From contig JAZKZR010000010.1 of the NCBI GenBank assembly GCA_045612805.1, positions 67,136 to 131,135 of the forward strand: DNA of 64,000 nucleotides. Direction: 5' to 3'. The notes under the pieces are model-generated. The model made no database searches. It was not told the DNA's origin and worked only from the letters and a program-made list of their open reading frames with translations. Shown here piece by piece: positions 6,883 to 57,084 of this stretch. The stretch comes from Candidatus Enterousia sp. Its GTDB lineage: Bacteria; Pseudomonadota; Alphaproteobacteria; Rs-D84. Position numbers and translations under genes: made by a program. Each line of letters starts with the position of its first letter. Positions within the stretch are counted from its first letter, which is position 1.

Positions 6883-6916
6883 CTCTCTACTCCTTTGTGT
6901 GGATTATAGCATATTT

Positions 6917-24232: not shown

Positions 24233-24308
24233 ACTTGAAAAATACTTTTTTTTATAGCACAGTGGCATTATATGAAAAAAATCATAATTTGCAAGCGGGT
24301 TTATGTAT

Positions 24309-25445
24309 ATGTCGGTGATATTACAAGATTTGGGTTTTGTTTGTGCGCTTGGGGTGTCGCACGATGAAATTGTTGAAAACGCACGGCGCGGCGACACGTC
24401 GGGTATGTTTCGTGTGATGCCGACCGTGGCGGAAACATCGGTTCCGTTTGGTTCGGTGAATATCGAAACGCACGAAATAATGCGATGCTATGATTTATTA
24501 CTTGCGGCATTGCGACAAATTGAACCGGCAATATCGAAATTAAAATCTGATTATGCACCGGACAGAATTGGAATAGTTATCGGTGCAAGTAATACCGGCG
24601 TGCACGAGGCGCAAAAACATTTAAACATTGCATTGGGAACAGGCAAATTGCCACATGAATTTTCCTTGTCCGAACTAGAATTATATTCACCAACCGCATT
24701 TTTGGTTGAAAAAACTGGGTTCGCCGGCCCCGCATATACCGTATCAACGGCCTGTTCATCCAGTGCCAAGGTTTTTCAAGATGCCAAGGATTTAATAGAA
24801 CAGGACATCTGTGACGCGGTTTTGGTTGGTGGTGTTGATGCGCGTTGTGATTTTGCACTGAACGGGTTTAATGCACTATCGGCACTTAGTTATAAACACA
24901 CAAACCCAATGTCGCAAAATCGTGACGGAATCAACCTTGGCGAAGGCGCGGCTCTTTTCATAATGACGCGTGGGGCGGTCGGTATAAAAATGTTGGGCGT
25001 GGGCGAAAGTTCCGATGCGTATCATTTAACAAGTCCGGATCCAACCGGGGCCGGTGCCATTGCTTCTATGAATTCTGCATTATTAAATGCTGGTTTAACG
25101 CCGGAAAAAATTGATTTTATAAATATGCACGGAACGGGAACGATTGCCAACGATGCGATGGAATCTTTGGCTATAAATTCGGTTTTTGGTGATAAAACGT
25201 TGTGTGCATCAACAAAACCATTAACCGGTCACACCCTTGGGGCGGCCGGCGCGGTAAGTGTGGCACTATCGTGGCTTATGATAAAACACCAATTTGTAAT
25301 ACCGCACATTTTTGATGGTGAATATGGTGCGGATTGTGCAAAGATAAATTTGGCGACCACGCAATGCAAAAAAAACATAAACAATGTGTTGTGCAACGCC
25401 TTTGCTTTCGGGGGCAGCAACGCAAGTGTAATAATTGGACGGTAA
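24309..25445 (+). CDS. Beta-ketoacyl-ACP synthase (KS, ApeO-like)
   Basis: Active-site TACSSS. The HGTGT and GHTLGAAG motifs are present. Divergent from the CLF-like gene. Confidence 0.8.
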   Translation: MSVILQDLGFVCALGVSHDEIVENARRGDTSGMFRVMPTVAETSVPFGSVNIETHEIMRCYDLLLAALRQIEPAISKLKSDYAPDRIGIVIGASNTGVHEAQKHLNIALGTGKLPHEFSLSELELYSPTAFLVEKTGFAGPAYTVSTACSSSAKVFQDAKDLIEQDICDAVLVGGVDARCDFALNGFNALSALSYKHTNPMSQNRDGINLGEGAALFIMTRGAVGIKMLGVGESSDAYHLTSPDPTGAGAIASMNSALLNAGLTPEKIDFINMHGTGTIANDAMESLAINSVFGDKTLCASTKPLTGHTLGAAGAVSVALSWLMIKHQFVIPHIFDGEYGADCAKINLATTQCKKNINNVLCNAFAFGGSNASVIIGR

Positions 25446-35520: not shown

Positions 35521-36516
35521 TTAAACCACCTCGGTCACGGCGCGCAGTGAACCGTCGCGTGACAGTTGCACAACACGAATCTTTTGCTTCATTTCCGCAA
35601 TCAAATCCGTGCGGTTATATGCGGGTTGCGTGTGCAAAATCCTGTCGGCGAATGCGGCATAGGCGGCTTCGGCACTTTCCGCGTGAATCGTTGTATAAAA
35701 ATGTTCGTGCCCGGTCCCAAGCATTTCCCAAAGAACCGACGCATTATCCGTTGATATTTCGCCACCAATAATTACGTCCGGTGTCATACGAACAACCAAA
35801 TCAAGCAATCGCGCATAATTAAAATCATTTGTTTGCTCTGTTCGCGACAATACAAAATGCACATGATTTTTCTGTGGAACGCGAACTTCGCGCGCATCTT
35901 CGACGGTAATAACACGACTGTTTTGGTCAATAAGGGTCAACATATGATTCAAAAATGTTGTTTTACCCGTCGCGGTCGCACCGCTTATCAAAATCGGACT
36001 GCCGTCGTTTATTGCGGACATCAATCTGTCGTATGGGTCGTCGGGCCGATTCGTTTTTCGTGGTTTTACCTTCATCAATTTTTTACCCCGTTCCAGGTGG
36101 TATTCGCCGAACGAAGTTTCCGCCACGCCGCCACCACGTATATTTAGCGCAACACCGCCCGTTATATCGCGTTCGTCATATTGCACATTTGGCCCGGCAA
36201 TCGCACTGAATCGATGGTTGCCCGGCAAAGTCGCATAAACGACCGGGATCCCATGTATCGGATCAAACGGTCGTTCATAAATGTTTGCAATCGTATGAAT
36301 TAAATCGACAAGGTATTGCTTGCTAAGCACCGGGGCATCATACGCAACCCACGGCACACGCGCCCCATGCAGGCGCATCCACACTTCGCCCGCATGGTTT
36401 ATCGCGATTTCTTCGACGAAACTTGGCCGATAAAATTCCGATATAGGTTTCAATAAAGATTCTAATACAACATTTGTCATCAAATTCATTTTATCATAAA
36501 TCGCCACTTGAATCAA
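35521..36516 (-). CDS. Type IV secretion ATPase, VirB11/TrbB family
   Basis: 331 aa. Walker A ISGATATGKTT, the RVITVEDAREV motif, an Asp box and a His box. Size fits VirB11 rather than CpaF/PilB. Confidence 0.6.
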   Translation of the reverse strand: MIQVAIYDKMNLMTNVVLESLLKPISEFYRPSFVEEIAINHAGEVWMRLHGARVPWVAYDAPVLSKQYLVDLIHTIANIYERPFDPIHGIPVVYATLPGNHRFSAIAGPNVQYDERDITGGVALNIRGGGVAETSFGEYHLERGKKLMKVKPRKTNRPDDPYDRLMSAINDGSPILISGATATGKTTFLNHMLTLIDQNSRVITVEDAREVRVPQKNHVHFVLSRTEQTNDFNYARLLDLVVRMTPDVIIGGEISTDNASVLWEMLGTGHEHFYTTIHAESAEAAYAAFADRILHTQPAYNRTDLIAEMKQKIRVVQLSRDGSLRAVTEVV

Positions 36517-43205: not shown

Positions 43206-43625
43206 ATGTTATCTGGATTCAAAATTTTTTCATCTGACCCCGTATGGCAACAGATTGTCACGGAATTTGGGGGTATGGTCACGACCGATTCGGTGTTGTG
43301 CGATGTGAATATGGACACGTTGAATTTGAAAACGCCAGTTTCGCCATCACTATTAAAATCATCAATTATTGCGACAACGGACAATACCGCGATTATCGAT
43401 TCTGTTTTTGGGGAACATGTTTCACTTTCACCCATACAATCACAAATCGTGACATTGCTTTATAAAACCGGCGGCATGTCCGCGGATGATTTAAAGGTTG
43501 CACTTGGGTATGCGCCGGATGCAACAACGCACAGTGTGGAAACCGCGATATACGAATTGCGCAAACTGTACGGTCATGACTTTATAAAAAACATAAACGG
43601 AATTTTCAAACTTGGGCGGATATAA
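43206..43625 (+). CDS. Hypothetical protein with C-terminal OmpR-type winged-helix-like segment
   Basis: The C-terminal ...LSPIQSQIVTLLYKTGG..SADDL...AIYELRKLYG resembles a trans_reg_C domain. Weak. Confidence 0.35.
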   Translation: MLSGFKIFSSDPVWQQIVTEFGGMVTTDSVLCDVNMDTLNLKTPVSPSLLKSSIIATTDNTAIIDSVFGEHVSLSPIQSQIVTLLYKTGGMSADDLKVALGYAPDATTHSVETAIYELRKLYGHDFIKNINGIFKLGRI

Positions 43626-44277
43626 AGTTTTTTCTTTTGATAAAATTCAAAGCACGCAAGATTATGCGTATGATATGATTGCAAATGGCACCGCGCGCGA
43701 TCACTGTGTTGTCACGGCACTGGCGCAATCCGCGGGACGCGGGCGTTATCGGCGTAAATGGGTGTCGCATCATGGAAATTTGTACGCAAGTTTTATATTC
43801 GATTCACCCGAACGCGATCCACGACTTTCGTACGCGGTGGCGGTCGCAATTGCGGAAACACTTATCACATTTGGAATACACCCAACAATAAAATGGCCAA
43901 ATGATATTTTAATTTCCGGGAAAAAAATATCGGGCGTTCTAATTGAATACGCGGGGCGATTCGTTATTGTCGGAATTGGAATAAATGTTCACACCAATCC
44001 AACGGTCGCGGAATACGAAACAACGCGCACCGATAAATATACGCGCGCGGATATCGCAGAAATTTTTTCCGCACTTACAAAAAATCTTGATAAATGGATG
44101 AACGCAAAATTCGATTCGGTGCGTGATGTGTGGATGAAACTTGCCATCGGAATAAATGCGCCGGTTAAATATCGCGGCGAAATTGTGGAACTGATTGGTA
44201 TAAACGATTCGGGGGCGTTGGTCGTACGACGGGGGTCGGAATACCTGTGGATTCACGGCGATGAAATAATGGTTTGA
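43612..44277 (+). CDS. birA: Biotin--[acetyl-CoA-carboxylase] ligase
   Basis: GRGRYRRKWVSHHGNLYASF (biotin-binding GRGRxGR motif), KWPNDIL, GVLIE. TTG start. No N-terminal HTH (group I BirA). Confidence 0.75.
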   Translation: MGGYKVFSFDKIQSTQDYAYDMIANGTARDHCVVTALAQSAGRGRYRRKWVSHHGNLYASFIFDSPERDPRLSYAVAVAIAETLITFGIHPTIKWPNDILISGKKISGVLIEYAGRFVIVGIGINVHTNPTVAEYETTRTDKYTRADIAEIFSALTKNLDKWMNAKFDSVRDVWMKLAIGINAPVKYRGEIVELIGINDSGALVVRRGSEYLWIHGDEIMV

Positions 44278-44438
44278 ACATCGCAGAAAACCGGTGTCGC
44301 AAACAATTGTCTTGACTTTTACATCGTTTTATGATACACTATTACTATCAACAGGAGAGATTATATGGTTCGCGCTTTTTAAGTGCGGATTTTTTTTATG
44401 CCACGCGATACGCGTGGCTTTTTACATGGGGAAAAATC

Positions 44439-44849
44439 ATGCAAATGGAAATAATAGAGGCGCACGATGAAACAACCACATTGGCGTATGCGGTCGCGCG
44501 AATCGTTTATGCGGAAACACTTGCAAAATCTTTGCGCGTCGTCGAAGCATTAACATCAATGATTTTTAACGCCGCGAATCACGACATAAAAAATATCAAA
44601 CGCATTATATCGAATTCTAGGATGTTCGAATCGCTATGCACAGAATCAACGCGTCATGAATTTTTATCTGTGGATGCGTCGCGTCGCGATTTTCAAATGT
44701 GCCTGCGCGTGGCGAAAACCATGTTGCACGGAAATTTGCCGGACACGTGTTGTCATGCAACAATGTTTCATCGTGCGGAATTCTTGCCGTCTTGGGCGGT
44801 TGCACGTGGATACATTTGCGACATTGATGGAATTTTATTTTACATATAA
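44439..44849 (+). CDS. Cell-wall hydrolase, SleB-like (possible phage-associated lysin)
   Basis: About 136 aa. ...VVEALTSMIFNAANHD... and C-terminal HATMFHRAEFLPSWA...GYICDIDGILFY resemble the SleB/CwlJ family. Pattern-level only. Confidence 0.45.
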   Translation: MQMEIIEAHDETTTLAYAVARIVYAETLAKSLRVVEALTSMIFNAANHDIKNIKRIISNSRMFESLCTESTRHEFLSVDASRRDFQMCLRVAKTMLHGNLPDTCCHATMFHRAEFLPSWAVARGYICDIDGILFYI

Positions 44850-44867: not shown

Positions 44868-45056
44868 ATGAGCAAATTTTTTCGTGGTGGATTCTTTGCG
44901 AATCGCCGAACACAAATAATGACCGCATGTGGAATTATGTCTGCGTTGTGTGCATACCTTGTTGGCGATTCGGATCTGTTTGCCACAATCCAGGCATTGA
45001 TCGCCGTTGGCGGTGTTTATCTGTTGCATAAAACAAATCAACAAAAAGGAAAATGA
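44868..45056 (+). CDS. Small membrane protein (62 aa)
   Basis: RBS acgggggcaacatg. One TM helix. Located between the hydrolase and the phage scaffold gene (holin-like position). Confidence 0.35.
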   Translation: MSKFFRGGFFANRRTQIMTACGIMSALCAYLVGDSDLFATIQALIAVGGVYLLHKTNQQKGK

Positions 45057-45057
45057 A

Positions 45058-45714
45058 ATGGAAAAAGTACCAGAAAAATTTTTAAACGAAGATGGAACAT
45101 TAAACAGTGACGCATTGATAAAATCATACAACGAACTTGAAAAAAAGATTGGCGGAATGATAACAGTGCCGGATGAAAAATCTGACGAATCGGTGCGAAA
45201 CCGCTTTATGCGCGCGATTGGTGTTCCCGAAAGCCCCGATGAATATCCACATAATGAATTGTTTGATGATGAAAATGTGCGCAAAGAATTTCATAAAATT
45301 GGTTTAACAAATTCGCAGGTTGAAAAAATTTATAACATTGCACAAGAATTTTTATCGCCAATCATATCTGAAATTTTTACGACACAACAAGAAGCAGATG
45401 CAATATCAAAATTAAAAAATTTTTTTGGTGGTGAAGAAAAAATGCATAATGCATTTGTTGCAATAAAATCATTTGGCGAAAGATTTTTACCCGTTGACGC
45501 GTTTAATGAATTATGCTCTACACCCCAAGGAATTCAAGGTGTTTACAAGATGATGCAATCAATGGAACCGCATGTAGAAACGGAAGGTAATGCACCGGAA
45601 AAATTATCTGAATCTGATTTGCGAGACATGATGCGCGATCCAAAATATTGGCGCGATCATGATGCAGAATACATTCGCAAAATTGAAAACGGTTTTAAAA
45701 AATTATATTCGTAA
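45058..45714 (+). CDS. Phage capsid assembly scaffolding protein (T7 gp9-like)
   Basis: RBS aaaaaggaaaatgaaatg. Acidic, helical, 218 aa. Immediately upstream of a T7-gp10-like capsid gene. Assignment is mainly by synteny. Confidence 0.45.
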   Translation: MEKVPEKFLNEDGTLNSDALIKSYNELEKKIGGMITVPDEKSDESVRNRFMRAIGVPESPDEYPHNELFDDENVRKEFHKIGLTNSQVEKIYNIAQEFLSPIISEIFTTQQEADAISKLKNFFGGEEKMHNAFVAIKSFGERFLPVDAFNELCSTPQGIQGVYKMMQSMEPHVETEGNAPEKLSESDLRDMMRDPKYWRDHDAEYIRKIENGFKKLYS

Positions 45715-46334: not shown

Positions 46335-47153
46335 ATGTCTGTTTCCATAGATCAAGTATTTGTGAAACAATTCGAAGCCGATGTCCATTTGGCTTATCAA
46401 CAGATGGGCACCAAATTGCGTTCAACCGTGCGCAGCAAATCCGGTGTTGTTGGCAAATCTACAACATTTCAAAAAATCGGTAAAGGCACCGCCAGTACAA
46501 AATCCCGTCATGGAATTGTGCCGGTTATGAATCTGAATCATGAACCTGTGGAATGCAATTTGCAAGATTACTATGCGGGTGATTGGGTTGATGCGTTGGA
46601 TGAATTAAAGGTCAATATTGATGAGCGCCGTGTCGTTGCGTCCGCGGGTGCGTATGCATTGGGGCGTAAAACTGATGAATTGATTATCAATGCGATGACC
46701 GCAACAACCCAGAATTCTGGTGATTATTCGACAGGCCTGACCAAGGCGATTGTTTTGGGTGCATTGGAAAAATTAAATGAAAATGATGTACCGGATGATG
46801 GTCGCCGTTTTGCGGTTGTTGGTGTAAAACAATGGAACGAATTGCTTGCCATTGATGAATTTTCATCCGCGGAATATGTTGGGGATGATTTGCCATTTAT
46901 TAACGGTGGTGAAGTCAAAAGATGGCTTGGCATTACATGGTTGATGCACAACGGTTTGCCGTTGTCTTCGTCAACGCATCGCGATTGCTTTATCTATCAT
47001 GCATCTTGCATTGGTCATGCGTGTGGGCAAGAAGTGAAAACCGATATTTCGTGGCACGGTGAACGTGCGGCGCACTTTATTAGCAACAGTATGTCCCAAG
47101 GCGCGGTGCTGATTGATAACAGTGGAATTGTCCGTCTTAAGTGCGGCGAATAA
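46335..47153 (+). CDS. Phage major capsid protein (T7 gp10-like)
   Basis: 272 aa. Segment-by-segment resemblance to T7 gp10A recalled from memory: QFEADVHLAYQQ...RSKSG..GKSTTFQKIG versus FGGEVLTAFARTS...SISSGKSAQFPVLG. The C-terminal GQEVKTDIS...AVLIDNSGIV resembles T7 AVGTVKLRD...AAGAVVF. RBS aaaggaataataatg. Confidence 0.65.
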   Translation: MSVSIDQVFVKQFEADVHLAYQQMGTKLRSTVRSKSGVVGKSTTFQKIGKGTASTKSRHGIVPVMNLNHEPVECNLQDYYAGDWVDALDELKVNIDERRVVASAGAYALGRKTDELIINAMTATTQNSGDYSTGLTKAIVLGALEKLNENDVPDDGRRFAVVGVKQWNELLAIDEFSSAEYVGDDLPFINGGEVKRWLGITWLMHNGLPLSSSTHRDCFIYHASCIGHACGQEVKTDISWHGERAAHFISNSMSQGAVLIDNSGIVRLKCGE

Positions 47154-47177
47154 CATCAATAACCAAGAGGAAAAACA

Positions 47178-47411
47178 ATGGCTTTTCAAAACAAAAATTT
47201 GTCGGTAATTGCATATGCAAATGGGTTCACGTTGTGGCACTATGTTGAAAGCGCAACATTGGCAACAATCACGGCAAGCGGTTATTTCGATGCGGTGGCA
47301 ACACTTATGAACAATGGTGATATTGTTATTATCAATGGTTCGGACAAAACATCGATAAAGAAAATCGCGGTTAGTGATGCCGGCGTTGTGACGACCGCCA
47401 CATTGGACTAA
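47178..47411 (+). CDS. Small phage structural-module protein (77 aa), function unknown
   Basis: RBS agaggaaaaacaatg. Located between the capsid and gp11-like genes. Confidence 0.4.
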   Translation: MAFQNKNLSVIAYANGFTLWHYVESATLATITASGYFDAVATLMNNGDIVIINGSDKTSIKKIAVSDAGVVTTATLD

Positions 47412-47488
47412 GGTTGATTATTGTTTGCAAAAATATAGGGCCGATTCTTTTCGGCCCTTTTTTCAATTTTTTAGAATAGGGGAAAATA

Positions 47489-48007
47489 ATGCTAACGAAA
47501 ATAGATTTGTGTTCTATGGCATTGTTGAAATTGGGTGAAAATCCGATTCAATCTTTGTCAGATGATACCGCGGCGGCAAAACTGGGACGAACGCTTGTTG
47601 ACTTTGTCATAGACACATTATTGGCAATGCATCCGTGGCGGTTTGCGTGTCGCACATATAATATCATACGTAACGAAAACGGAGATTTTATTATACCATC
47701 GGATGTGTTAAGGGTTATAAAAACCAACGGTAAAATTATCGGAAATCAAATTATATCCAATACAGATACCTTAAACCTGGTGGCCATAGTTCGTGTGACA
47801 CCGGATGTTTTCCCAAGTTATTTCGCATCACTTGTCGCGACAAAACTTGCGGTGGAATTTTGTATGCCGCTTATTTCCGATCAAACGGTATTCAGAACAT
47901 TGGTTGCACTTTATGAAAACGAATTACAAACCGCAAAATTTATAGACAGCACAACATCGGTGAATACGGGGATAGAAAATTTTTCATTGATAGATAGTCG
48001 TTTTTAA
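47489..48007 (+). CDS. Phage tail tubular protein A (T7 gp11-like)
   Basis: 172 aa. N-terminal ...LCSMALLKLGENPIQSLSDDTAAAKLGRTL...HPWRF parallels T7 gp11 ...[34 protein letters not shown]...RGWTF, recalled from memory. Confidence 0.55.
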   Translation: MLTKIDLCSMALLKLGENPIQSLSDDTAAAKLGRTLVDFVIDTLLAMHPWRFACRTYNIIRNENGDFIIPSDVLRVIKTNGKIIGNQIISNTDTLNLVAIVRVTPDVFPSYFASLVATKLAVEFCMPLISDQTVFRTLVALYENELQTAKFIDSTTSVNTGIENFSLIDSRF

Positions 48008-48028
48008 CAAGCCAAAGGAGATTTTAAT

Positions 48029-49732
48029 ATGGGAAATTTTATAAAAACCGAGAAATCTTTTACTAATGGTGAAGTTTCAATAAACTTTTTTGAAAACGAT
48101 GATATCCAAGGCCTTAGGTTTATGGAAAATTTTGATGTGTGTGCGGGTGGTGGCCTTGTGCGGCGGCCTGGTCTAAAAAAATCCACACAATTGATTTCTG
48201 ATGCAAGATTGGTATCTTTTTCATTATCGGAATCCCAAGAATATATTTTGGCAATGATGAACGGACGCATAAGAATTTATGCGAACAATACTTTCGTGCA
48301 AGATGTATTAACACCATGGCCAAGTTCCGTGATTCCGAAATTACAATACACGCAACGTTTTGGCACAATGATATTTGTGCATCCAGATTACGCGCCAATG
48401 GTTTTATATTACGAAAATGGGCTTTTCAAAATTAAAAATTTCACTTTTTCAAAATCGCCGGATACCGGGAATTTGCAAATACCCTTTATGCGATTCGAAG
48501 ATTCCGAAGATGTCACAATAACCATAACAAATTCGGGTGGCATCACACATTTCATAGCAAGTGAAGATTTTTGGACCCAGAATAATGTTGGTGGGCATTT
48601 GTTTGCAATTGGAAAAAGTTGGTTGGTAAATTCGTATGTAAGTGCCACAGATATAACGGTAATATGCAACGGCACATATACAATACCGAATGACCCAATT
48701 TCAGATTGGCAAGAAGCCGCGTTTAGTCCACGTCGCGGTTGGCCATCATCGATAACTTTTCACCAAGATAGGTTGGTTTTTGGTGGTGCTAAATCATGGC
48801 CGGGTGGAATATGGTTGTCGCATGTTGGTGGGCACAGAAATTTTGACCCTGGGACCGGATTGGATGACGAAGCAATATTTTTCACACTATTGTCAGACCA
48901 CAGACAGCATGTTTGCACACTGGTCAGCAGTGATAATTTACAGATACTTACATCCGAAGGGGAATGGGCGGTTTCCAACAAACCACTTACCCCAGAATCA
49001 GTCGATATAAAAACGCATACATCGATTGGCAGCCCCGCGGACAGATATCTTGCGCCACAACAAATCGAAGGCAAAACTATATTCGTCGCAAAAAATAAAG
49101 AAATCCGACAACTGTGTCTTGATAGTTTGGGCGAAAATTACGATGCCAACAATTTATGTGCATTTGCCGAACATTTGATAACGAACCCCGTCGATATTTC
49201 TTACAATAAAAACAATAAAAAACTTTTTGTTGTTATGTCTGATGGAAATATGGCGGTATTGAATTATGACACATCGCACGGAATATCTGCTTGGGGACGA
49301 TACACAACGGATGGAAAGTTTACATCAACCACAACGTACGATGACAAAACATTTGTCGTTGTAAAACGTGGTGACGATTTTTTCCTTGAATATTTTGATG
49401 ATTCAGAATTCGTTGATGCAGATAGTCACACATACACCGCGACGGCATACGGATTACCACTTTTAACATCGGGACATAATGCAAAATATATCAGAATCAC
49501 AAAAATAACAGTTCGCGTTTATAATACCAAGACATTATTCATAAACGATGAACGGGTGGTTTTGCCAAACGATGTTTATTCCGATGATTCGGTCGGGTTC
49601 AGTGGTGATGCATCTATAAATGTATTGGGAACAAGTGCAGATTTAATTGATGCGCCATGGAAAATTTCTACGACAGACAATTTGCCATTAAAAATATTGT
49701 CGGTGACAATATACGGAAGATATCAAATATAA
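48029..49732 (+). CDS. Phage tail tubular protein B (T7 gp12-like), shortened
   Basis: 567 aa. ITFHQDRLVFGG...LQILTSEGEWAVSNKPLTPESVDIKT resembles T7 gp12 VFFFRNRLGFLSG...LLIWSDEAQFVLTASGTLTSKSVELNLTT, recalled from memory. Confidence 0.5.
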   Translation: MGNFIKTEKSFTNGEVSINFFENDDIQGLRFMENFDVCAGGGLVRRPGLKKSTQLISDARLVSFSLSESQEYILAMMNGRIRIYANNTFVQDVLTPWPSSVIPKLQYTQRFGTMIFVHPDYAPMVLYYENGLFKIKNFTFSKSPDTGNLQIPFMRFEDSEDVTITITNSGGITHFIASEDFWTQNNVGGHLFAIGKSWLVNSYVSATDITVICNGTYTIPNDPISDWQEAAFSPRRGWPSSITFHQDRLVFGGAKSWPGGIWLSHVGGHRNFDPGTGLDDEAIFFTLLSDHRQHVCTLVSSDNLQILTSEGEWAVSNKPLTPESVDIKTHTSIGSPADRYLAPQQIEGKTIFVAKNKEIRQLCLDSLGENYDANNLCAFAEHLITNPVDISYNKNNKKLFVVMSDGNMAVLNYDTSHGISAWGRYTTDGKFTSTTTYDDKTFVVVKRGDDFFLEYFDDSEFVDADSHTYTATAYGLPLLTSGHNAKYIRITKITVRVYNTKTLFINDERVVLPNDVYSDDSVGFSGDASINVLGTSADLIDAPWKISTTDNLPLKILSVTIYGRYQI

Positions 49733-49751
49733 ACGAACAAGAGGTATAAAA

Positions 49752-50096
49752 ATGGGACAAATTATTTCAGATGTTACAGATATTTTGAATTATAAAGAAA
49801 ATAAAAATGCGGCCGAAAAAAACAAAAAAAAGATTTTATCAGATATTGCATCGGACGAAGTAGAAAAACAAAACATTGTGAAAAAAGTGCTTGCCATGCA
49901 ACGCGCAAAATACGGCGCATCCGGCATGTCGGCCAATGGAATAACGGAAAAAAATGTTATGCACAGGTTGCAACAGGAAATCGAAACCCCGTATGACAAT
50001 AAAATAAAAACAAACATGGCAAAATTAAATAGTATCGGCGTAAAAAAGAAAAATATGCTGACATCAATTTTGGAACACCTGGATAAACTGGTTTGA
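49752..50096 (+). CDS. Hypothetical phage protein (114 aa); position suggests terminase small subunit
   Basis: RBS aagaggtataaaaatg. Lys-rich and helical. Sits immediately upstream of the terminase large-subunit fragment. Confidence 0.3.
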   Translation: MGQIISDVTDILNYKENKNAAEKNKKKILSDIASDEVEKQNIVKKVLAMQRAKYGASGMSANGITEKNVMHRLQQEIETPYDNKIKTNMAKLNSIGVKKKNMLTSILEHLDKLV

Positions 50097-50695
50097 AAAC
50101 CATGAATCAATACAATGAATTTTTGGATTCTTGGAATCATGTATTGGGATATGAAACGCCGGCGCATCACCGTGATATGATGAATTTTTTAACAAGTGTA
50201 ATCACCGGCGATTCGCACCGGGGGTTGCTTATGGCGTTCCGTCATTCAGGCAAATCAACAATTGTCGGAATTTTTGCCGCGTGTGTATTATATCGGCGAC
50301 CCGAAACACGGATTTTGATTTTATCCGCGGAAACACATTTGGCAACAAGGATGGTTATGCATATTCGCAATGTTTTGGAAAATCATCCTTGGTGTGCGGA
50401 TATGATTCCAAAAAATAAACGCGAATGGGCGGAAAATAAAATAACCATAAACCGCCCCATCGGAATTCGTGAACCATCCGTTGTTTGCCAAGGCGTTTAT
50501 GGCAACATCACCGGTATGCGTGCGGATTTAATAATATGTGACGATGTCGAAGTTCCAAATACTTGTAATACAATAAAAAAACGGGCCGGTCTGCGCGACA
50601 GATTGCGCGAACTGGATTTTATCCTGTCACCAAATGGAACGATGATTTATATTGGAACGCCACACACACTGGATACAATATACCGAATATCTTAG
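50093..50695 (+). pseudogene. Terminase large subunit, N-terminal ATPase fragment (T7 gp19-like), terminated after motif C
   Basis: Walker A LLMAFRHSGKST, Walker B LIICDDVE, motif C IYIGTP, then a TAG stop. The nuclease domain is absent here and found at 54064-54927. Confidence 0.6.
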
Positions 50696-51345
50696 GCCGC
50701 ATCATGCGACGGCATAGAACTAAGCAACCCGTGTAAACGGTGCAACATCTTTTTGCCTTCATCACCAAACATTGGTAAATACGTTTCATATTCCGGCATG
50801 TCTACCTGCAGATTTGCGCGTGCGCGTTCGGTAATGGGTTTAGATAATACATCGTTCGCGTTGTCCCACATACGATAAGCCGTGGCCGCGCGAACAATAT
50901 CATCAAATTTTCGTAATGCTTCGGGATTGTTGAACAATGCGTTTTTGGACCGCGACACCCAATCGTCACCGAATTTTTTAATGATCGGATTCGCCATGAA
51001 TCGATTTATGCCATCAAGATCTGGGTTAAACGAATCAATTGCCGAAATCAATTGCTGTAATTCATCATCCGCCATGTCTGATGCATCCGCAGATTCATTC
51101 ATCATGCCACCATACGGCAACAATTCGCGCGCAATAGAATCCATTGGTGTTGTGCCGTCACGTAAATTTTTAATATGTTGAATCAACATTTTTCCGGTGG
51201 GTAAATCTTGCAATTCGTGCAAAATCTCATCGGTTGCTTCGTCAACAAAAACACGATTCACTGCGCGCCATCCACCGACGATAACATGCGCCTGGCGATA
51301 AAGATTCAAAAGTTTTTGTGCAATAACACTTGCCCTTGCTTTCAT
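50692..51345 (-). CDS. Hypothetical protein (217 aa) within the block inserted in the terminase gene
   Basis: ORF on the opposite strand to the phage structural genes. No domain recognised. Confidence 0.4.
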   Translation of the reverse strand: MKARASVIAQKLLNLYRQAHVIVGGWRAVNRVFVDEATDEILHELQDLPTGKMLIQHIKNLRDGTTPMDSIARELLPYGGMMNESADASDMADDELQQLISAIDSFNPDLDGINRFMANPIIKKFGDDWVSRSKNALFNNPEALRKFDDIVRAATAYRMWDNANDVLSKPITERARANLQVDMPEYETYLPMFGDEGKKMLHRLHGLLSSMPSHDAA

Positions 51346-51371
51346 CCCGATTATTCCCCCGCGGTGGTGTT

Positions 51372-52382
51372 TTATTCGGCCAAAATCATTATAACCTTGT
51401 GCATTGTCGGCGCAGAAATCTTTTCATCGGGCGAAACCATTTGACCATAAATTTTGCCCTTGGAATCTTTACGCACAACGGCGATATTGGCGGTTGTTTT
51501 TTCCTCGGACTTTAGCGAATTAAATTCCGCATCAACGAAAACAGCCAAATCACCCGGAACAACGTTTGCCTTTGCATCCGCAAAAACATATGATTTTTCC
51601 GGTATAAATCCGCCCAAGCGTTTAGAATTAGGAATGACCGCATATACATTACGACGACCTTCAAGATTTGCCGGTGCGGCAATCATTTTTGATTCAGACC
51701 GTACAAAACTCATAACCTTGCCATCGGGCCGCCCAAACACAGGAATCAATTTACGCCGCGCATTATCATAAAGTTTTGCACCGTACAAATGCCCATGCGT
51801 TTCATCAAAATCATTGGACGAATCACCTGGTACCAAAACGGCCTGAACACGTTCTTTGACCTTGTTCATCTGTTTGGTAAGTTCGCCAGATTTATAAAGT
51901 TCGGCAATTTTATCAAACAAACTTTCGACAGAATGTGCAAAAGATTTTGCCAAAGGTTCAATTTCGTTTTTATAAACCTCGCGTTGACCAACCTCTATCT
52001 TATGATACACCGAAAGTGTCATGCCGGCATCTTTGGCGGCCTGGGCAATTGTTTTGCCAGATTGTTGACGTATTTTGCGCAATCCGGTACCAAACACCTT
52101 AAGACCACCGTCTTCGTTATCATTCATACGACGGGTAATTTCATTTTGCCATTTTGACGCAACCTCGTCAGTGTCTTTGATGAAAATATCGGACAATTTG
52201 CACCCCAAGATGTTGCAGATATTCAATAACTGTTTCTGATTAAGGCGACGAACACCCTTTTCAATCTTGGAAACAGCGGACAGCGATAAATTCGAACGCC
52301 GTGCCAGTTCGGTCATTTTCATACCAGTGGCAAGACGTATATTACGAATATTATTCGGAAAAATGATTTCTTCTTGGGCCAT
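51372..52382 (-). CDS. XRE-family transcriptional regulator with tandem HTH domains and a C-terminal LexA/CI-like beta domain
   Basis: Start MAQEEIIF with canonical RBS aaggag(6)atg. Two HTH_XRE-like segments (IRNIRLATGMKMTELARRSNLSLSAVSKIEKG; LRKIRQQSGKTIAQAAKDAGMTLSVYHKIEVG). The C-terminal domain is CI/S24-like but has no clear Ser-Lys dyad. Confidence 0.55.
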   Translation of the reverse strand: MAQEEIIFPNNIRNIRLATGMKMTELARRSNLSLSAVSKIEKGVRRLNQKQLLNICNILGCKLSDIFIKDTDEVASKWQNEITRRMNDNEDGGLKVFGTGLRKIRQQSGKTIAQAAKDAGMTLSVYHKIEVGQREVYKNEIEPLAKSFAHSVESLFDKIAELYKSGELTKQMNKVKERVQAVLVPGDSSNDFDETHGHLYGAKLYDNARRKLIPVFGRPDGKVMSFVRSESKMIAAPANLEGRRNVYAVIPNSKRLGGFIPEKSYVFADAKANVVPGDLAVFVDAEFNSLKSEEKTTANIAVVRKDSKGKIYGQMVSPDEKISAPTMHKVIMILAE

Positions 52383-52447
52383 AAAAAACTCCTTGGGTAA
52401 ATCTTGACAAAATGATAAGCGATTTTTTGAATTATGGCAAGGAAAAA

Positions 52448-52540
52448 GTGATAGAGTGTTAGTGGTTAGTCGTTTCTGGAATAAATTCGCAATTACAAGA
52501 TAATTCCAGAAATTACTAACCACTAACACTAGCCACTATT
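52448..52540. repeat. Palindromic intergenic element family 2 copy (with nested ttctggaat...attccagaa inverted repeat)
   Basis: gagtgttagtggttagtcg ... ctaaccactaacactagccacta arms flank a tctggaataaattcgcaattacaagataattccaga core. Lies between the regulator start and the dnaB stop. Confidence 0.7.
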
Positions 52541-54089
52541 ATTCGAATTCATCTGGAATTTCATCAATATCAATCGACATTGGGGCGTCGACCGGTTCGG
52601 CAACTGGCGGCATATCCGGTGCAAATTCTACACCGCGTCCCGCCATTTCGCCAAGGTTGTCGAACAAACTATATTCCGCCAAGAATGCGACCGTGACCGT
52701 ATCCGTTCGGCCGTGACGGTTCTTGCCAATGATAATGTCCGCCTTGCCCTTGGCCTTTTCAAGCCGGTTTTGCCACGAATCGACGGACTTTTCACTTGGC
52801 GTATTTGAAAGTCGCCGTGACGGGTCACGATTTTGCAGATAGTATTCTTCACGATATGTGAACATAACAATGTCGGCGTCTTGTTCAATTGAACCTGATT
52901 CACGCAAATCGGCAAGTTGTGGCCGTTTATCATCACGATTTTCAACACTGCGCGACAATTGCGACAGGGCGATAACCGGGACATTAAATTCCTTGGCCAT
53001 CATTTTAAGGCCACGCGTGATTTCGGACAATTCTTGAACACGATTGTCGCTGCGTTTCCCGCCCGGCAAAGTCAGTAATTGCAAATAATCGATAACGATA
53101 AGTGCAATGCCATTATATTTCCGCGCAAGACGCCGCACCCGCGTGCGAATCATCGGCAAAGACATGCCAGGCGTATCATCAATGAACAACGGAATCCGCC
53201 CGATTGCATCTGAAAACTGGGCCATTTTAAGGAAATCTTCATCCGTTAGTGAACCTTCACGCATTGCGGAAGACGGAATTCGTGCCTGGGAAGCCAAAAC
53301 GCGCGCCGCCAATTCAGACGCACCCATTTCAAGACTAAAAAACGCGACCGCGCCCTTATATTGTTCGTTCGCGCGACTGGAATAAATCGCATTCGCGGCA
53401 TTGAACGCGATATTCATGGCAAGCGTGGTTTTACCCATACCCGGACGACCCGCGATAATAAGCAAATTTGATTTATGCAAACCACTTATTGCGCGGTCCA
53501 AATCGGTAAGTCCCGTGGTAAGTCCCGAAAGTTTTCCGTCCGCCTTGTATGCAATTTCCGCCTCACTCAGGGCATCTTTTAACGCGTTTGCAATCGGCAC
53601 GACATCGCGTGACGCATCGCCGGTCATTGCCAAATTGAACAATTTTTGTTCGGCGGATTCAATCTGTGACGACACCGGGTTATCAAGGTCTTCGACAAAC
53701 GCGGCATCGGTGACCGATTGCCCAAAATCGATAAGTTCGCGCCGCACCGCGTTTTCATGAACGATTCGACCGTATTGTTCGACATTTACAACGGTTGCGC
53801 CGGCACTTGCCAACTGGGTCAAATATTCAACGCCACCAACAGATTCCAATGTCCCTTGCTGGTCCAAATAGTTTTTTGCGGTGATTATATCAAACGGAAT
53901 TCCGGCGGCAAATTGGCGCAGGGCAAGTTTATAAATTTCTTGGTGCGCGGGATGCGAAAAATCTTCCGGTCGCAAAAATTCGGAAATTTTTTCAAGTGCC
54001 CGATTCTTCATTAAAACCGCGGCAAGAACGGCCTGTTCGGCCTCTAAATTCGTTGGCAAAGTTTTGGGAGTAAAGTCCATGTCAAACAT
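52539..54089 (-). CDS. dnaB: Replicative DNA helicase DnaB
   Basis: 516 aa. N-terminal domain LEAEQAVLAAVLM. Walker A GRPGMGKTT, SLEMG, Walker B LIVIDYLQL, arginine finger region IIGKNRHG. Acidic C-terminal tail. Confidence 0.85.
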   Translation of the reverse strand: MFDMDFTPKTLPTNLEAEQAVLAAVLMKNRALEKISEFLRPEDFSHPAHQEIYKLALRQFAAGIPFDIITAKNYLDQQGTLESVGGVEYLTQLASAGATVVNVEQYGRIVHENAVRRELIDFGQSVTDAAFVEDLDNPVSSQIESAEQKLFNLAMTGDASRDVVPIANALKDALSEAEIAYKADGKLSGLTTGLTDLDRAISGLHKSNLLIIAGRPGMGKTTLAMNIAFNAANAIYSSRANEQYKGAVAFFSLEMGASELAARVLASQARIPSSAMREGSLTDEDFLKMAQFSDAIGRIPLFIDDTPGMSLPMIRTRVRRLARKYNGIALIVIDYLQLLTLPGGKRSDNRVQELSEITRGLKMMAKEFNVPVIALSQLSRSVENRDDKRPQLADLRESGSIEQDADIVMFTYREEYYLQNRDPSRRLSNTPSEKSVDSWQNRLEKAKGKADIIIGKNRHGRTDTVTVAFLAEYSLFDNLGEMAGRGVEFAPDMPPVAEPVDAPMSIDIDEIPDEFE

Positions 54090-54927
54090 AGTATACGAAA
54101 AAAATGTTTTTTCAACGCCTTTTTTATCGGGTTATTCGGAATTGAAAATTCCAATAATTGACAGTGACGGAAACCCGGCGTGGCCGGCGGTTTTCCCAAT
54201 TGAAAAAATCGATAAAATCCGCAAAACCGTGGGCGAACGACATTTTTCGGCACAAATGATGTTGCAATATATCGCGCCCGATAAAATCCGCCTTGACCCG
54301 GGGGGAATAAAATTATATGACGCGGAATTTGATCCGCACGGGTGCCGAATTGACGAAATGCCAATAACCGGTGCGACAATATATTGGGATCCGTCGGGTG
54401 GGCGACGAAATTCGGATAACAGTGTTTGCGTGATTATTTATCGTGATGACCGAACGCATCGCGCGTTTATTCACGATATGATTTATTTGGTTGTCCCAGA
54501 CGAAGTTGAATATCCACTTGCATACCAATGTGAAAAGGTTTTGTCGTTTGTGCGCGCACACCGGCAAAGAACCCTTGCACTTGAAACAAACGGAATTGGT
54601 GCGGCGTTGCCGGAAATTATGCGTGAAACAATTGCGCGCGCGGGCTATGAAATACAAATCCGCCCGATAAGCAACAGCCACCGCAAAGAAGACCGAATCT
54701 TGGACGCAATCGAACCGTTGCTTACGACCGGGCGACTTTACGCGCATCGGCGCATAACGCAAACCCCGTTTATCTCGGAAATGTTGGCATGGACACCGAT
54801 TGGTGGCGGCGAACATGACGACGGATTGGACGCGGTTGCGGGGGCAATTTTATGTTCGCCCAGCCCCGTGCGTCCCATTGGAACAAACGTTCGCCCATTT
54901 ATCGCGAACACAGAATTCAAACTTTAA
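54064..54927 (+). pseudogene. Terminase large subunit, C-terminal nuclease-domain fragment (T7 gp19-like)
   Basis: IYWDPSGG...D.SVCVIIY (RNase-H-like nuclease Asp motif) and DDGLDAVAGAI (terminal Asp motif), parallel to T7 gp19 AGIDSQ... and NEALDCFVYALAA. In-frame continuation of the 50093-50695 fragment is impossible, because about 3.4 kb of opposite-strand genes intervene. Confidence 0.6.
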
Positions 54928-54942: not shown

Positions 54943-56169
54943 ATGAAATATGACTTACAACAAATGTATTCACATGCATTGGCTCTGCGCGAACCATGGA
55001 TTAAACGTTGGTCTGATGCGCGCCGTTACACTATGCCTACAACCGATGAAGAAATCGCGACACTGTTCGATGGAACAGCGGCGGACGCGGCAGATAATTT
55101 GGCGGCGTGTATGTATTCATTACTAACCCCGCCGGAATCATTGTGGTTGAACCTTATTCCGGAATCCGAAGATTCCCCGGATGCGGCAACGGCGACAATG
55201 GCATTACGTTCGAACCTAAACGAATCAAATTTTTATACAACGGTGCACCAATGTTATCTTGATTTGGTGACGGTTGGAACGGCGTGTCTGTTTATGTCCG
55301 AATCACCAATTGGCGCGGCAAGTGCGTTTAACTTTACCGCGATTCCGATGACGGATATTGCGATTTTGCCGAACGCGGTGTTTCACACGGCAACCATGAC
55401 CGCCCAAGAAGTTGCGCGCCGTTATCCCGAATGGACACCACCACACGCAATCCTTGACGCGATGAAGCAAAATCCGGAATACCAATTGCGCCTTGTTCAG
55501 GCATTGGTTGACACGGAATTCACCGCATGGATAGATGTCGGTGGCAATCTTGAAAACAACATTGTGTCGCGTGGCACATTTGAAACGAACCCATACATCA
55601 TATTCCGCTGGGCCGTGTCCAGTGGTGAACTGTACGGCCGCGGGCCGGTGCTGCGCGCGTTGCCCGATATCAAAACCGCGAACAAGGTCGTCGAACTTGT
55701 CCTAAAAAACGCAACCATCGCGGTCAGTGGCATATGGCAGGCCGACGATGATGGCGTCATAAACCTTGGCAACATAAACCTTACCCCGGGTGCAATTATA
55801 CCCAAAGCGGTGGGCAGTACCGGCCTTACACCACTTGCAACGGGTGCAAATTTTGATGTGTCGCAAATAATTCTAAAAGACCTGCGCGAACGCATCCGCC
55901 ACACAATGCTTGCGGACAGAATCGGCACACTTTCGGACAAAGAAATGACCGCAACGGAAATACTTGCGCGGAATGCGGACATGTTGCGTATATTGGGCGC
56001 GACATATGGACGATTGCTGCACGAATTTATCCGGCCGCTTTGCGACCGCGGATTGCAAATCCTTGCACGGCGCGGGGTAATCGACAAAATATCACTGCAC
56101 AGTGACGCGGAATTAAAATACATTGCCCCGATTGCACAAATGGTCGCGGAAAACGGAACATTGATATAG
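54943..56169 (+). CDS. Phage portal/head-to-tail connector protein (T7 gp8-like), shortened
   Basis: 408 aa. AACMYSLLTPPESLWLNLIPESE / YLDLVTVGTACLFMSE parallel T7 gp8 LASKLMLALFPMQTWMRLTISEYE / LKQLVVAGNVLLYLPE, recalled from memory. RBS aaaggaagaaaaatg. Confidence 0.55.
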   Translation: MKYDLQQMYSHALALREPWIKRWSDARRYTMPTTDEEIATLFDGTAADAADNLAACMYSLLTPPESLWLNLIPESEDSPDAATATMALRSNLNESNFYTTVHQCYLDLVTVGTACLFMSESPIGAASAFNFTAIPMTDIAILPNAVFHTATMTAQEVARRYPEWTPPHAILDAMKQNPEYQLRLVQALVDTEFTAWIDVGGNLENNIVSRGTFETNPYIIFRWAVSSGELYGRGPVLRALPDIKTANKVVELVLKNATIAVSGIWQADDDGVINLGNINLTPGAIIPKAVGSTGLTPLATGANFDVSQIILKDLRERIRHTMLADRIGTLSDKEMTATEILARNADMLRILGATYGRLLHEFIRPLCDRGLQILARRGVIDKISLHSDAELKYIAPIAQMVAENGTLI

Positions 56170-56178: not shown

Positions 56179-56385
56179 ATGGAAAAAATTGCACACGAAT
56201 ACGCCCGCACCTTTGCGGGCGCATCGGGGCGGGCGGTCATTGAACACCTGCGCCGGATAACAATCGAAAGGGTGCTGGGGCCACATGCAACGGACGGCGA
56301 ATTGCGCGCACTGGAAGGTGCGCGCGCGATCGTGCATCAAATTGAAACTTTAATTGAACGGGGGCGCGGCAATGCCAAAATCTAA
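56179..56385 (+). CDS. Small hypothetical phage-module protein (68 aa)
   Basis: Follows the portal gene. No RBS evidence. Low confidence. Confidence 0.3.
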   Translation: MEKIAHEYARTFAGASGRAVIEHLRRITIERVLGPHATDGELRALEGARAIVHQIETLIERGRGNAKI

Positions 56386-56629
56386 TGGATTCGCAAACAT
56401 CATCGACACATTACGCAGTGGTTGGTTCATTATCGCGTTTATTGCGGGCATGATATATTGGGTGGCGCGCCAAGATAACGCCCTGGTCGAACTTGACCGA
56501 TTGACGACACGCATAACGACACTTGAAAATCGCACAACGATTTTGGAAACCGGAATAGGGCAATTGCAATTAAAAATCGACGGCATCAAAGAAGACCTGA
56601 CCCTTATCAAAACCGCAGTGATAAAGTAG
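56372..56629 (+). CDS. Small membrane protein with coiled-coil (85 aa), phage module
   Basis: Start MPKSNGF. One TM helix (WFIIAFIAGMIYWV), then a coiled coil. Confidence 0.35.
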   Translation: MPKSNGFANIIDTLRSGWFIIAFIAGMIYWVARQDNALVELDRLTTRITTLENRTTILETGIGQLQLKIDGIKEDLTLIKTAVIK

Positions 56630-56746
56630 TGTTAGTGGGAAATGCAAGTGGTTAGTGTTAGTGTGTCCTGGAATAACTTCGAGATTACGGATTGATTCCA
56701 GAAGACGACTAACCACTATCCACTAACACTTACCCCTACCCACTAA
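56626..56746. repeat. Palindromic intergenic element family 2 copy marking the right end of the phage-like module
   Basis: agtgttagtgggaaatgcaagtggttagtgttagtg ... cactatccactaacacttacccctacccacta with nested cctggaata...attccagaag. Abuts the yraN stop. Confidence 0.7.
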
Positions 56747-57084
56747 AACGCATTCTTCGTCCAATCGATATGTCGGCCGTGGACAATTATAACATCGAAC
56801 CGTGCGTCGCCCGTCCATCGCCGTTGCAGTAAATATGTTTCCGCCGCCAATCGCAACCGCCGTTGTTGCGCGGGCGTAATTGCGCCCCACGCGGTCATTA
56901 CATCTTTGCGTTTTTTTACTTCAACAAAAATAATCAACTTTCCGCGTTTGGCGATAATATCAATTTCTGCGCGCCCAGTGTTTCGCCCGGTTGTATAACG
57001 CCGATGCAAAATCCTAAACCCGTGCAGAATTAAAAACGCGCACGCAAAAAATTCTGAAAAAATTCCGGTTTTATAAGAATCCAT
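56743..57084 (-). CDS. yraN: YraN family (UPF0102) predicted endonuclease
   Basis: 113 aa. GE..A..FL...G..IL.RN(Y)....GEIDIIA....L.FVEVK.R pattern (GRAEIDIIAKRGKLIIFVEVKKR). Confidence 0.75.
   Translation of the reverse strand: MDSYKTGIFSEFFACAFLILHGFRILHRRYTTGRNTGRAEIDIIAKRGKLIIFVEVKKRKDVMTAWGAITPAQQRRLRLAAETYLLQRRWTGDARFDVIIVHGRHIDWTKNAF

Follow-up and report, generated by a model that had tools for sequence, protein, structure and literature searches.

We analysed a 64-kb stretch of DNA from Candidatus Enterousia (the window), in which dnaB, the gene for the replicative DNA helicase, lies between two genes that each encode a part of the large terminase subunit (TerL) of a T7-like phage. 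With the window as reference, a DnaB protein scan of species-representative genomes returned 80 loci at 73-99% identity, to which L numbers were given, as also to the other contigs compared below. All 80 are metagenome-assembled genomes (MAGs) of Candidatus Enterousia or of gut Alphaproteobacteria, and their hosts are ruminants, birds, humans and other animals. Enterousia has been placed in the uncultured order Rs-D84 of the Alphaproteobacteria; its genomes of ~0.75-1.0 Mb have no tricarboxylic acid cycle or respiratory chain, and the bacteria are probably partner-dependent (PMC12306168). The sequence taken around each locus reaches ±10 kb, the proteins of the window were run by tblastn against all 80 loci, and counts of gene order are limited to loci with sufficient flank.

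The genes recur in one order and as full-length matches. After birA come, on the plus strand, p172, the scaffold gene, the capsid gene, the genes for tail tubular proteins A and B (tube A and tube B), a gene for a 114-aa protein and the gene for the N-terminal part of the terminase (TerL-N). Next come p217, a helix-turn-helix (HTH) regulator gene and dnaB on the opposite strand, and then the gene for the C-terminal part of the terminase (TerL-C) and the portal gene. In the loci inspected, a Bbp19-like gene and a gene for a small membrane protein stand after the portal gene, usually followed by yraN ... bamA and rseP. In the window the phage-type module is ~12 kb long and comprises head, tail, packaging and lysis functions (Table 1), with host birA (43612-44277) just before it. 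Pfam and PHROG searches of the open reading frames (ORFs) between 44.3 and 56.7 kb found no integrase, polymerase or primase.

Table 1 Features of the dnaB locus, in positions of the 64-kb window. The ratio of nonsynonymous to synonymous substitution rates (dN/dS) was obtained by the Nei-Gojobori method for the window against its closer relatives.
Feature	Position	Strand	Evidence and remarks
p172, endolysin-like	44331-44849	+	Conserved part from about M37 (44439); left edge of the module, after host birA
T7-type scaffold (capsid assembly)	45007-45714	+	PF05396 Phage_T7_Capsid, 1.9e-10; dN/dS 0.25
Major capsid protein	46335-47153	+	PF19821, 6e-76; phrog_3437; dN/dS 0.037
Small ORF, 77 aa	47178-47411	+	After capsid; homologues in L171 (74%) and L165 (47%)
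Tail tubular protein A (adaptor)	47489-48007	+	phrog_394, 1e-29; dN/dS 0.076
Tail tubular protein B (nozzle)	48029-49732	+	phrog_376, 1e-80; dN/dS 0.094; no stops in 76 species
114-aa coiled-coil protein, probably internal virion protein	49752-50096	+	77 species; dN/dS 0.14
TerL-N	50093-50695	+	phrog_38, 7e-42, positions 273-458; dN/dS 0.057
p217	50692-51345	-	All-helical, clade-restricted; last gene of the HTH-p217 unit
Double Cro/C1-type HTH regulator	51372-52382	-	336 aa from conserved ATG 52382-52380; HTH_3, 1.3e-18, twice
Inverted repeat CTTGCCA-N25-TGTCAAG	52403-52441		Brackets sigma70-like promoter TTGCCA-17-TATCAT
dnaB, replicative DNA helicase	52539-54089	-	516 aa; conserved start 54080
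Start-codon overlap zone of dnaB and TerL-C	54079-54138		Junction alignment, 80 species
TerL-C	54079-54927 (listed ORF from 54064)	+	phrog_38, 481-705; PF22530; PF17289; dN/dS 0.096
Portal (head-tail connector)	54943-56169	+	PF12236, 5.8e-82; dN/dS 0.043; no stops in 73 species
Bbp19-like small phage protein	56179-56385	+	PF25181, 2.2e-12; conserved after portal in other species
91-aa transmembrane and coiled-coil protein	56354-56629	+	Weakly XhlA-like, E 0.009, below cut-off

The helicase, the two-gene terminase and their junction

A first-pass annotation of the window had described a complete 516-aa DnaB with all helicase motifs, and this description holds. The ORF carries the Pfam domains PF00772 (DnaB N-terminal, 1.7e-31) and PF03796 (DnaB_C, 3.2e-98), and its translation contains the Walker A motif GRPGMGKT together with SLEM, IDYLQL, SQLSR and ESGSIEQDAD. 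The start kept across 80 species is the ATG at 54080, which is M4 of the listed ORF and gives a protein of 513 aa; the listed M1, at the head of the three additional codons, is not conserved in the 80-species junction alignment.

The same annotation had considered a prophage-borne DnaB-like helicase, an idea that the family models contradict. The protein scores 597.6 bits against NF006606, the alphaproteobacterial DnaB equivalog (cut-off 540), and 504.1 bits against TIGR00665 (cut-off 385.25) and passes both, whereas it fails the phage_DnaB model TIGR03600 with 410.3 bits against a cut-off of 498.65. Phage DnaB-type helicases (TIGR03600, PHROG 19) belong to the same superfamily, and the window protein matches phrog_19 at 1.9e-113. 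The best 120 matches of the first DnaB protein search all fell in the same clade, whose own cluster representative is 70% identical to the window DnaB. Outgroups were sought among 1.84 billion cluster representatives (a library clustered at 50%). Outside the clade, the nearest DnaBs are all cellular: that of an Alphaproteobacteria MAG, recorded as a "replicative DNA helicase" (60%), and those of Stellaceae (50%) and Rhodomicrobium (47%). In a collection of phage records the best matches were MT835812 (49%), an unverified and unannotated faecal contig, and a Caulobacter phage (43%). MT835812 showed no nucleotide similarity to the six gut-outgroup loci L176, L179, L180, L185, L188 and L203, and in L185 (human gut, 49%) the DnaB gene follows rpmB in ordinary host surroundings and encodes a protein of 490 aa that lacks the C-terminal tail.

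This tail, an acidic C-terminal extension that had been noted as atypical, is real and is conserved in all 81 orthologues, which are 512-523 aa long. It follows the canonical end ..YSLFDNL and consists of a variable linker of ~30 aa and a conserved acidic tip, IDxxAIPDDMPL (IDIDEIPDEFE in the window). Similar tips are found in the sister-lineage protein of L167 (VEDLPDMDA) and in the clade representative (MEDLPFLD). Among cellular alphaproteobacterial DnaBs, the closest have a short ..DDxLPE.. motif at their end, and several of these share a C-terminal (D/E)x(L/I)P(E/D). Given the tips in L167 and in cellular Alphaproteobacteria, the acidic tip looks like an elaborated feature of the lineage rather than a phage trait.

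Each species representative has one DnaB orthologue, and the dN/dS of the gene is 0.037. We infer from the genome size, the single orthologue per species and the strong constraint that dnaB is the only copy in each genome. Its product most likely acts as the replicative helicase, as its family membership indicates. Judged by its sequence, dnaB is an ordinary, vertically inherited cellular-type helicase gene of the Enterousia bacterium, and the protein itself is not novel. It resembles the alphaproteobacterial chromosomal DnaB (NF006606/PRK09165; TIGR00665) in having the full N- and C-terminal domains, all helicase motifs and scores above both cut-offs, and differs from it in the added linker and acidic tip and in the site of the gene between the terminase halves.

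When TerL-N and TerL-C are concatenated, they align in a single block over 95% to unsplit T7-like TerL. The joined halves are 28% identical to TerL of Yersinia phage YeP4 and also align to the T7 gp19 structures 8dgc and 4bij. TerL-N corresponds to residues 41-221 of T7 gp19 and carries Walker A, Walker B and motif III, and TerL-C consists of the remaining ATPase domain and the RNaseH-like nuclease domain. The cut falls just after ATPase motif III (..IGTPHTLDTIY), with no residues lost or duplicated. The terminase of the window descends from the T7-type TerL (gp19), with the ATPase and nuclease motifs of that family, and differs from it as a two-gene variant in place of a single polypeptide.

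The two TerL ORFs lie 3.3-3.8 kb apart in all species. TerL-N of the window ends 3 residues after ...GTPHTLDTIY; in most species the end comes 2-8 residues after DTIYR, and the stop overlaps that of p217 by 4 nt. TerL-C begins at an invariant ATG, and the Shine-Dalgarno sequence before it (GGGAG, 54066-70) is conserved. In ten species 21 nt are inserted directly after this ATG without loss of the frame, so translation of TerL-C starts there. TerL-N and TerL-C are most likely made separately, and they presumably assemble into one ATPase-nuclease, in view of the conserved pieces and their catalytic motifs.

Other accounts of the cut were rejected. For a target-site duplication at the split (IY/VY), the alignment to unsplit TerL shows that the two stretches are different positions, and for a split intein there is no room, since the 3 + 32 residues correspond to ~23 profile positions. 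No meaningful direct or inverted repeats were found at the ends of the dnaB-HTH-p217 block, which speaks against a model of excision or inversion.

Split phage genes are known from other systems. In T4-like phages, nrdA or DNA polymerase genes are divided by inserted homing endonucleases, and in some actinophages the ATPase domain and the nuclease domain of the terminase are annotated as separate ORFs. The Enterousia genes are similar to these in being two collinear, conserved ORFs whose products presumably reassemble. They differ in the place of the cut, which is within the ATPase domain and follows motif III, and, compared with the homing-endonuclease splits, in what fills the gap, which is the host dnaB operon in Enterousia and a unit resembling a small RNA gene in the contigs L135 and L162 described below.

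dnaB and TerL-C meet head to head. An invariant CCATG holds both starts, the TerL-C ATG at 54079-81 on the plus strand and the dnaB ATG at 54080-78 on the minus strand, and the ribosome-binding site of TerL-C sits in dnaB codons. In 78 species the normalised synonymous-codon entropy of TerL-C codons 1-20 is 0.15-0.30, against a gene mean of 0.76 and a value of 0.62 for the next-lowest interval. Within these codons the dnaB strand reads TTGAAA-16-TACTAT (54115->54088), which ends 7 nt before the dnaB ATG. The frozen stretch of TerL-C is probably the dnaB promoter.

Conservation, selection and relatives of the locus

The first-pass annotation had placed dnaB outside any conserved chromosomal context, but throughout the genus the gene order does not vary. 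Directly upstream of dnaB stands TerL-C in 77/77 loci, and downstream of it HTH-p217-TerL-N in 78/78, a count that includes five loci flagged only by an over-strict script threshold. The complete module is present in all 57 loci with enough flank to hold it. Besides the independent assemblies of 80 species, many metagenome and IMG/VR contigs have the same arrangement, well beyond what chance would produce. A search of the literature on Enterousia, Rs-D84, T7-like gene transfer agents (GTAs) and a split terminase with dnaB did not find the arrangement described.

The selection on the phage-type genes (Table 1) can be compared with that on the host genes birA (dN/dS 0.051) and bamA (0.043); the sequences compared are not near-identical, with synonymous divergence (dS) of 0.2-1.5. 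No in-frame stops were found in capsid, portal, TerL-N, TerL-C, tube A or tube B in 73-79 species. None of the 80 species departs from the TerL motifs Walker A, Walker B and III or from the nuclease motifs YWDPS, ETNG and DDGLDA. The capsid is 80-100% identical across 75 species, again with no stops, and is better conserved (at least 80% identity) than DnaB (at least 73%). Pairwise distances between the proteins are correlated with those of DnaB at r 0.82-0.90 for the phage-type genes, against 0.69 for birA and 0.83 for bamA. The description of the region as a phage remnant had to be abandoned, as 57/57 to 78/78 species keep the phage-type genes intact, with dN/dS of 0.04-0.10 as in birA and bamA. 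GTAs are recognised by a signature of this kind, here ~9 kb of phage structural genes that are kept under selection in one chromosomal place in genomes this small.

Compared with the close relative L004, the window is a mosaic. The dS is 0.55-1.3 from the capsid through HTH (46335-52529) and 0.1-0.3 for scaffold, dnaB, TerL-C, portal and the flanking host genes, which suggests that recombination between related species has replaced the module's middle part.

IMG/VR lists the Enterousia arrangement (L082-L134) as viral genomes, in the form of uncultivated virus genomes (UViGs) of 10-13 kb, and one nr record (P0040) labels a DnaB of the clade "DnaB-like replicative helicase [Caudoviricetes sp.]". 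The viral labels in both databases are likely a systematic mis-call of a host region; the "Caudoviricetes" label arises because virus-mining tools call this chromosomal region viral.

T7-like podophages (Autographivirales-type) have homologous structural and packaging genes. The environmental T7-like contigs of IMG/VR (L136-L161) are 61-66% identical to the module in the capsid, 41-46% in the portal and 34-49% in TerL; to cultured T7-like phages TerL is 25-28% identical. The contigs have the order portal-scaffold-capsid-tube A-tube B-(~3 kb)-TerL, and the sequence from scaffold to tube B is that of the module. In L149, L154, L156 and L159-L161 the N and C parts of TerL are at most ~180 nt apart. 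Unlike these phages, the Enterousia module has no RNA polymerase, DNA polymerase, primase-helicase, large core proteins or small terminase. Its portal directly follows TerL, its TerL is split, and it is fixed in the chromosome and diverges together with the host.

Two contigs of low GC content, L135 (31%) and L162 (29%), have the Enterousia order, TerL and then portal, and their TerL is cut at the identical point (..GTPHTENSIYY* / MQKIYNK.., or ..YVGTPHTENSIYY* and MQKIYNKT..). The halves are separated by a non-coding spacer of ~335 nt, without dnaB, HTH or p217. In neighbour-joining trees of the capsid, of TerL and of capsid, TerL and tube B combined, Enterousia and L135 group together against the unsplit relatives with bootstrap values of 91-100. 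As L135 and L162 have the same split with a spacer only, the split is older than the dnaB block. The block had been thought to interrupt the terminase gene; to go by the 335-nt spacer, the terminase was already two genes before dnaB arrived. The simplest history would be that the terminase became two expressed genes once, in the common ancestor, and that the dnaB block later filled the spacer.

In the sister lineage L167, dnaB (60%) is followed by the host genes MFS, two MipA, a DEAD helicase and bamA, and homologues of HTH (57%) and p217 lie as a pair ~9 kb beyond dnaB. This layout indicates that the HTH-p217 pair is ancestral in the order Rs-D84 and was not always adjacent to dnaB.

The spacers (L135:9058-9391 and L162:160-489) are ~94-97% identical over ~210 nt, while the flanking TerL-C proteins are only 57% identical. 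They contain a TTGACA-17-TAAACT promoter, two long hairpins and then a GC-rich terminator, and the hairpin loops are CU-rich and anti-Shine-Dalgarno-like (CCUCC, UCUCUCCUC). The spacer reads like a small-RNA gene. An Rfam search of it returned no family, and neither the window nor the Enterousia loci contain the element.

T7-like clusters that are chromosomal but more distant, and whose TerL of 494-501 aa is unsplit, were found in L163 (1311-4437), L164, L165 (903-13494) and L166, in a marine alphaproteobacterial MAG and on a 2.33-Mb contig. Here TerL, a small gene, a PF07486 cell-wall hydrolase gene and a PF11351 GTA_holin_3TM gene are followed by nhaA, icd, folD and yggT. Between the two lineages in this group TerL is 50% and Icd 67% identical. 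These clusters suggest that vertically kept T7-like modules are more widespread in the Alphaproteobacteria.

Origin and possible role of the arrangement

We consider it probable that the cell's helicase gene is lodged in a domesticated, GTA-like module of T7 type with a two-piece terminase. The fixed place, the strong purifying selection and the lack of an integrase, polymerase or replication gene all indicate a domesticated module of the GTA kind and not a decaying prophage. The sequence features of a GTA are present, namely vertical inheritance at a fixed locus, purifying selection (dN/dS 0.037-0.14) and no replication, integration or lysogeny-switch module of its own. The first-pass annotation had offered, as a second possibility, that the cell's dnaB had been moved into a mobile-element graveyard. 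A cell-type helicase within phage-derived DNA is indeed what we found, but the surroundings are no graveyard, since the genes are intact and selected.

RcGTA provides the closest comparison in kind. It too is a head-tail-packaging cluster without replication or integration genes, which occupies one site, is inherited vertically under purifying selection and has lysis-type genes, and the distant relatives L163-L166 add the likeness of PF11351 GTA_holin_3TM and PF07486 next to TerL. The ancestry of RcGTA is an HK97-type siphovirus, whereas the Enterousia module has T7-like podovirus ancestry (PF12236, PF05396, T7-type TerL, tube A and tube B), holds its terminase in two genes and has an essential host gene embedded in it. 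To our knowledge, all GTA families derive from phage types other than T7-like podoviruses.

Several points weigh against our explanation. It has no recognisable small terminase and no large internal core proteins (gp15/gp16-like); the missing small terminase is compatible with non-specific packaging and proves nothing. A short tail-fibre gene, kept in 31/77 species, is absent from the window species. The terminase is cut within its ATPase domain and not at a domain boundary, and promoter-like sites are no more frequent in the region than the background (34 found, 31 expected). No DnaB outside the clade is more than 50-60% identical to that of Enterousia, so a very old xenologous replacement of dnaB stays conceivable. 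Finally, L167 is the sole sister-lineage contig and covers neither the region upstream of dnaB nor that downstream of p217, and with its layout this makes the order of events less certain.

The rival explanation that survives best, although we hold it to be improbable, is that the helicase itself came from a phage. In this case an ancestral temperate T7-like phage would have contributed its DnaB and a Cro/CI regulator, and the former would have displaced the cellular dnaB in the Rs-D84 ancestor and would by now be essential. Such an origin would agree with the location of the gene within phage-derived DNA, with the adjoining XRE/Cro-type regulator, with the lack of any outside-clade DnaB above 60% identity and with the single "Caudoviricetes" record. 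It would also agree with the long acidic C-terminal tail of DnaB; the T7 gp4 helicase has an acidic C-terminal tail as well. However, the record is explained by virus-mining tools, and the protein passes the alphaproteobacterial equivalog model and fails the phage one. Cellular DnaBs of free-living Alphaproteobacteria form the closest outgroups, and several of them have the (D/E)x(L/I)P(E/D) motif in common with it, while phage matches reach only 43-49%. In L167 the gene is followed by host genes (MFS, MipA and bamA), and the stretches of L136-L161 that were examined hold no homologue of DnaB, HTH or p217.

An active mobile element, be it a small integrating phage, a satellite or an island that targets the same site in each species, seems very unlikely. 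The many 10-13 kb regions that IMG/VR lists as viral genomes and the mosaic dS against L004, which shows recombinational exchange inside the module, would fit such an element. Yet no integrase or recombinase and no flanking repeats are present, the flanking host genes do not change (birA to one side and, in most species, yraN...bamA to the other), the gene distances track the host distances, and the module holds a dnaB of cell type.

A dead T7-like prophage, broken by host DNA and surviving as neutral leftovers, would account for a terminase in two pieces, for the lack of integrase, polymerase, small terminase and core proteins and for the missing tail-fibre gene of the window species, but hardly for ~9 kb of phage-type genes kept in 57/57 species despite reduced genomes below ~1 Mb, with dN/dS of 0.04-0.10, no in-frame stops, invariant catalytic motifs and a capsid conserved more than DnaB, and we give it next to no credence. 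Just as implausible is a terminase that is rejoined in development, with the 3.4-kb block excised in cells that produce particles, as the skin element is from sigK. The halves are collinear, share one orientation and are complete, but the junctions have no direct repeats, and neither the block nor its vicinity encodes a recombinase. TerL-C has an invariant start and a Shine-Dalgarno sequence of its own, and in-frame insertions after its ATG are tolerated; TerL-N has its own stop and variable short tails; and in L135 and L162 the two genes are arranged likewise around a spacer with its own promoter and terminator.

The arrangement would then have arisen as follows. In an ancestor common to Enterousia and its low-GC relatives, the terminase would have been split into two separately translated genes, and in the Enterousia line the dnaB-HTH-p217 block would later have occupied the spacer, by insertion or by paired inversions. 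Since then dnaB and TerL-C would have been locked head to head by their overlapping starts, each with its signals inside the other. As selection and gene content suggest, the module probably builds a T7-like head with a portal and a short tail, which would be released by lysis. Transcription of the late genes, from scaffold to TerL-N, would converge on the dnaB operon. Together with the interleaved signals of dnaB and TerL-C, this convergence makes it possible that replication and particle production are coupled or mutually exclusive. The most far-reaching form of this proposal is a podovirus-derived GTA, which would be new among GTAs, with a split packaging enzyme, whose control is interlocked with dnaB such that replication and particles are coupled or exclusive and the module could not be lost without damage to dnaB. 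We regard this form as speculative and on balance unlikely, if less so than any of the rival explanations.

If a T7-like module is under selection throughout a genus whose genomes are below ~1 Mb, then a gut bacterium with a strongly reduced genome, which probably depends on partners, bears the cost of keeping a virus-particle machine. If particles are made, GTA-like domestication would extend to podovirus ancestry. The terminase would offer a motor that nature has divided within the ATPase domain, and so could be useful for understanding motor assembly. The overlap of dnaB and TerL-C is a rare case of an essential replication gene that shares control sequence with a domesticated viral gene; it may point to a link between replication and particles, or to a route by which domesticated genes become entrenched. 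The locus is also a likely case of virus-mining pipelines mislabelling a host replication gene as phage-borne.

Regulator, accessory genes and other features of the window

The listed ORF of the HTH regulator extends to 52529, but its N-terminal 48 codons are not conserved and contain stops in 37 species. The protein has a mean column identity of 81%, L167 included, and its PDB matches are HTH domains of XRE, ClgR and C-protein type. It had been called a CI-like regulator, which is correct for the Cro/C1-type HTH part; an S24/LexA-type domain was not detectable, with no Peptidase_S24 match at E <= 1, a probability of 1% when aligned to E. coli LexA by hhalign and a negative PDB profile search. 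Prediction gives a beta-rich structure for the C-terminal 150 aa, and a single-sequence AlphaFold2 (AF2) model had a predicted local distance difference test (pLDDT) score of 38, which makes it unusable. The inverted repeat upstream occurs once in the window, where 0.03 matches are expected, and many species have it again in this intergenic region. Its position around the HTH promoter suggests autoregulation. No second copy was found near the phage-type genes or elsewhere in the window, and the repeat therefore gives no evidence that the regulator controls the module. Between the dnaB stop and the HTH promoter (52455-52530) lies a 28-nt palindrome, 93% complementary and with a 20-nt loop, that occurs only in the closest relatives L003, L006 and L008 and is probably a recent small insertion or a terminator-like hairpin.

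p217 has no Pfam, PHROG or NCBIfam match, and its 1096 homologues are all hypothetical proteins of the same clade. Its AF2 model has a pLDDT of 80 and no fold match in the PDB.

p172 is conserved in other species. It has no direct Pfam match, and a weak tblastn match (22%, E 5e-5) connects it to the PF07486 Hydrolase_2 gene after TerL in L163-L166. A strong terminator-like hairpin (47437-47458) lies downstream of the 77-aa ORF. The stop of the 114-aa gene overlaps the TerL-N start, and the viral contig L154 has a homologue of this gene downstream of tube B. On the right the module ends with the 91-aa membrane protein, and host yraN (56743-57084, minus strand) follows. It is 71% identical in L169-L171 and has a homologue at the start of L135; it might be a lysis or holin accessory protein.

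Outside the module, an ORF of 331 aa at 35521-36516 on the minus strand resembles by eye a secretion ATPase of VirB11/TrbB type. No other type IV secretion genes were recognised near it, and no family search was made on this ORF. The cumulative GC skew of the window has its minimum at ~24 kb (about 23000-24500) and its maximum at ~51 kb (about 50700, the convergent junction of TerL-N and p217). These turns follow switches of gene orientation and are 27 kb apart, so they cannot both be replication landmarks.

The tail-fibre gene encodes 188 aa and lies between the 114-aa gene and TerL-N, for example at L059:13917-14483 on the minus strand. It resembles the N-terminal domain of the T7 tail fibre, PF03906, with an E value of 3e-5 that is just under the cut-off; the version in L135 has 237 aa and an E value of 3e-6. 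The stretch between the small genes after the portal and yraN varies from 0.1 to 3.9 kb among species and holds nothing extra in the window. L004 has there an ORF of 395 aa (6059-7246, minus strand) that is fibre- or adhesin-like by eye and has no Pfam match, and in L021 (3975-7393) the stretch encodes a large lipoprotein and an outer-membrane beta-barrel-like protein.

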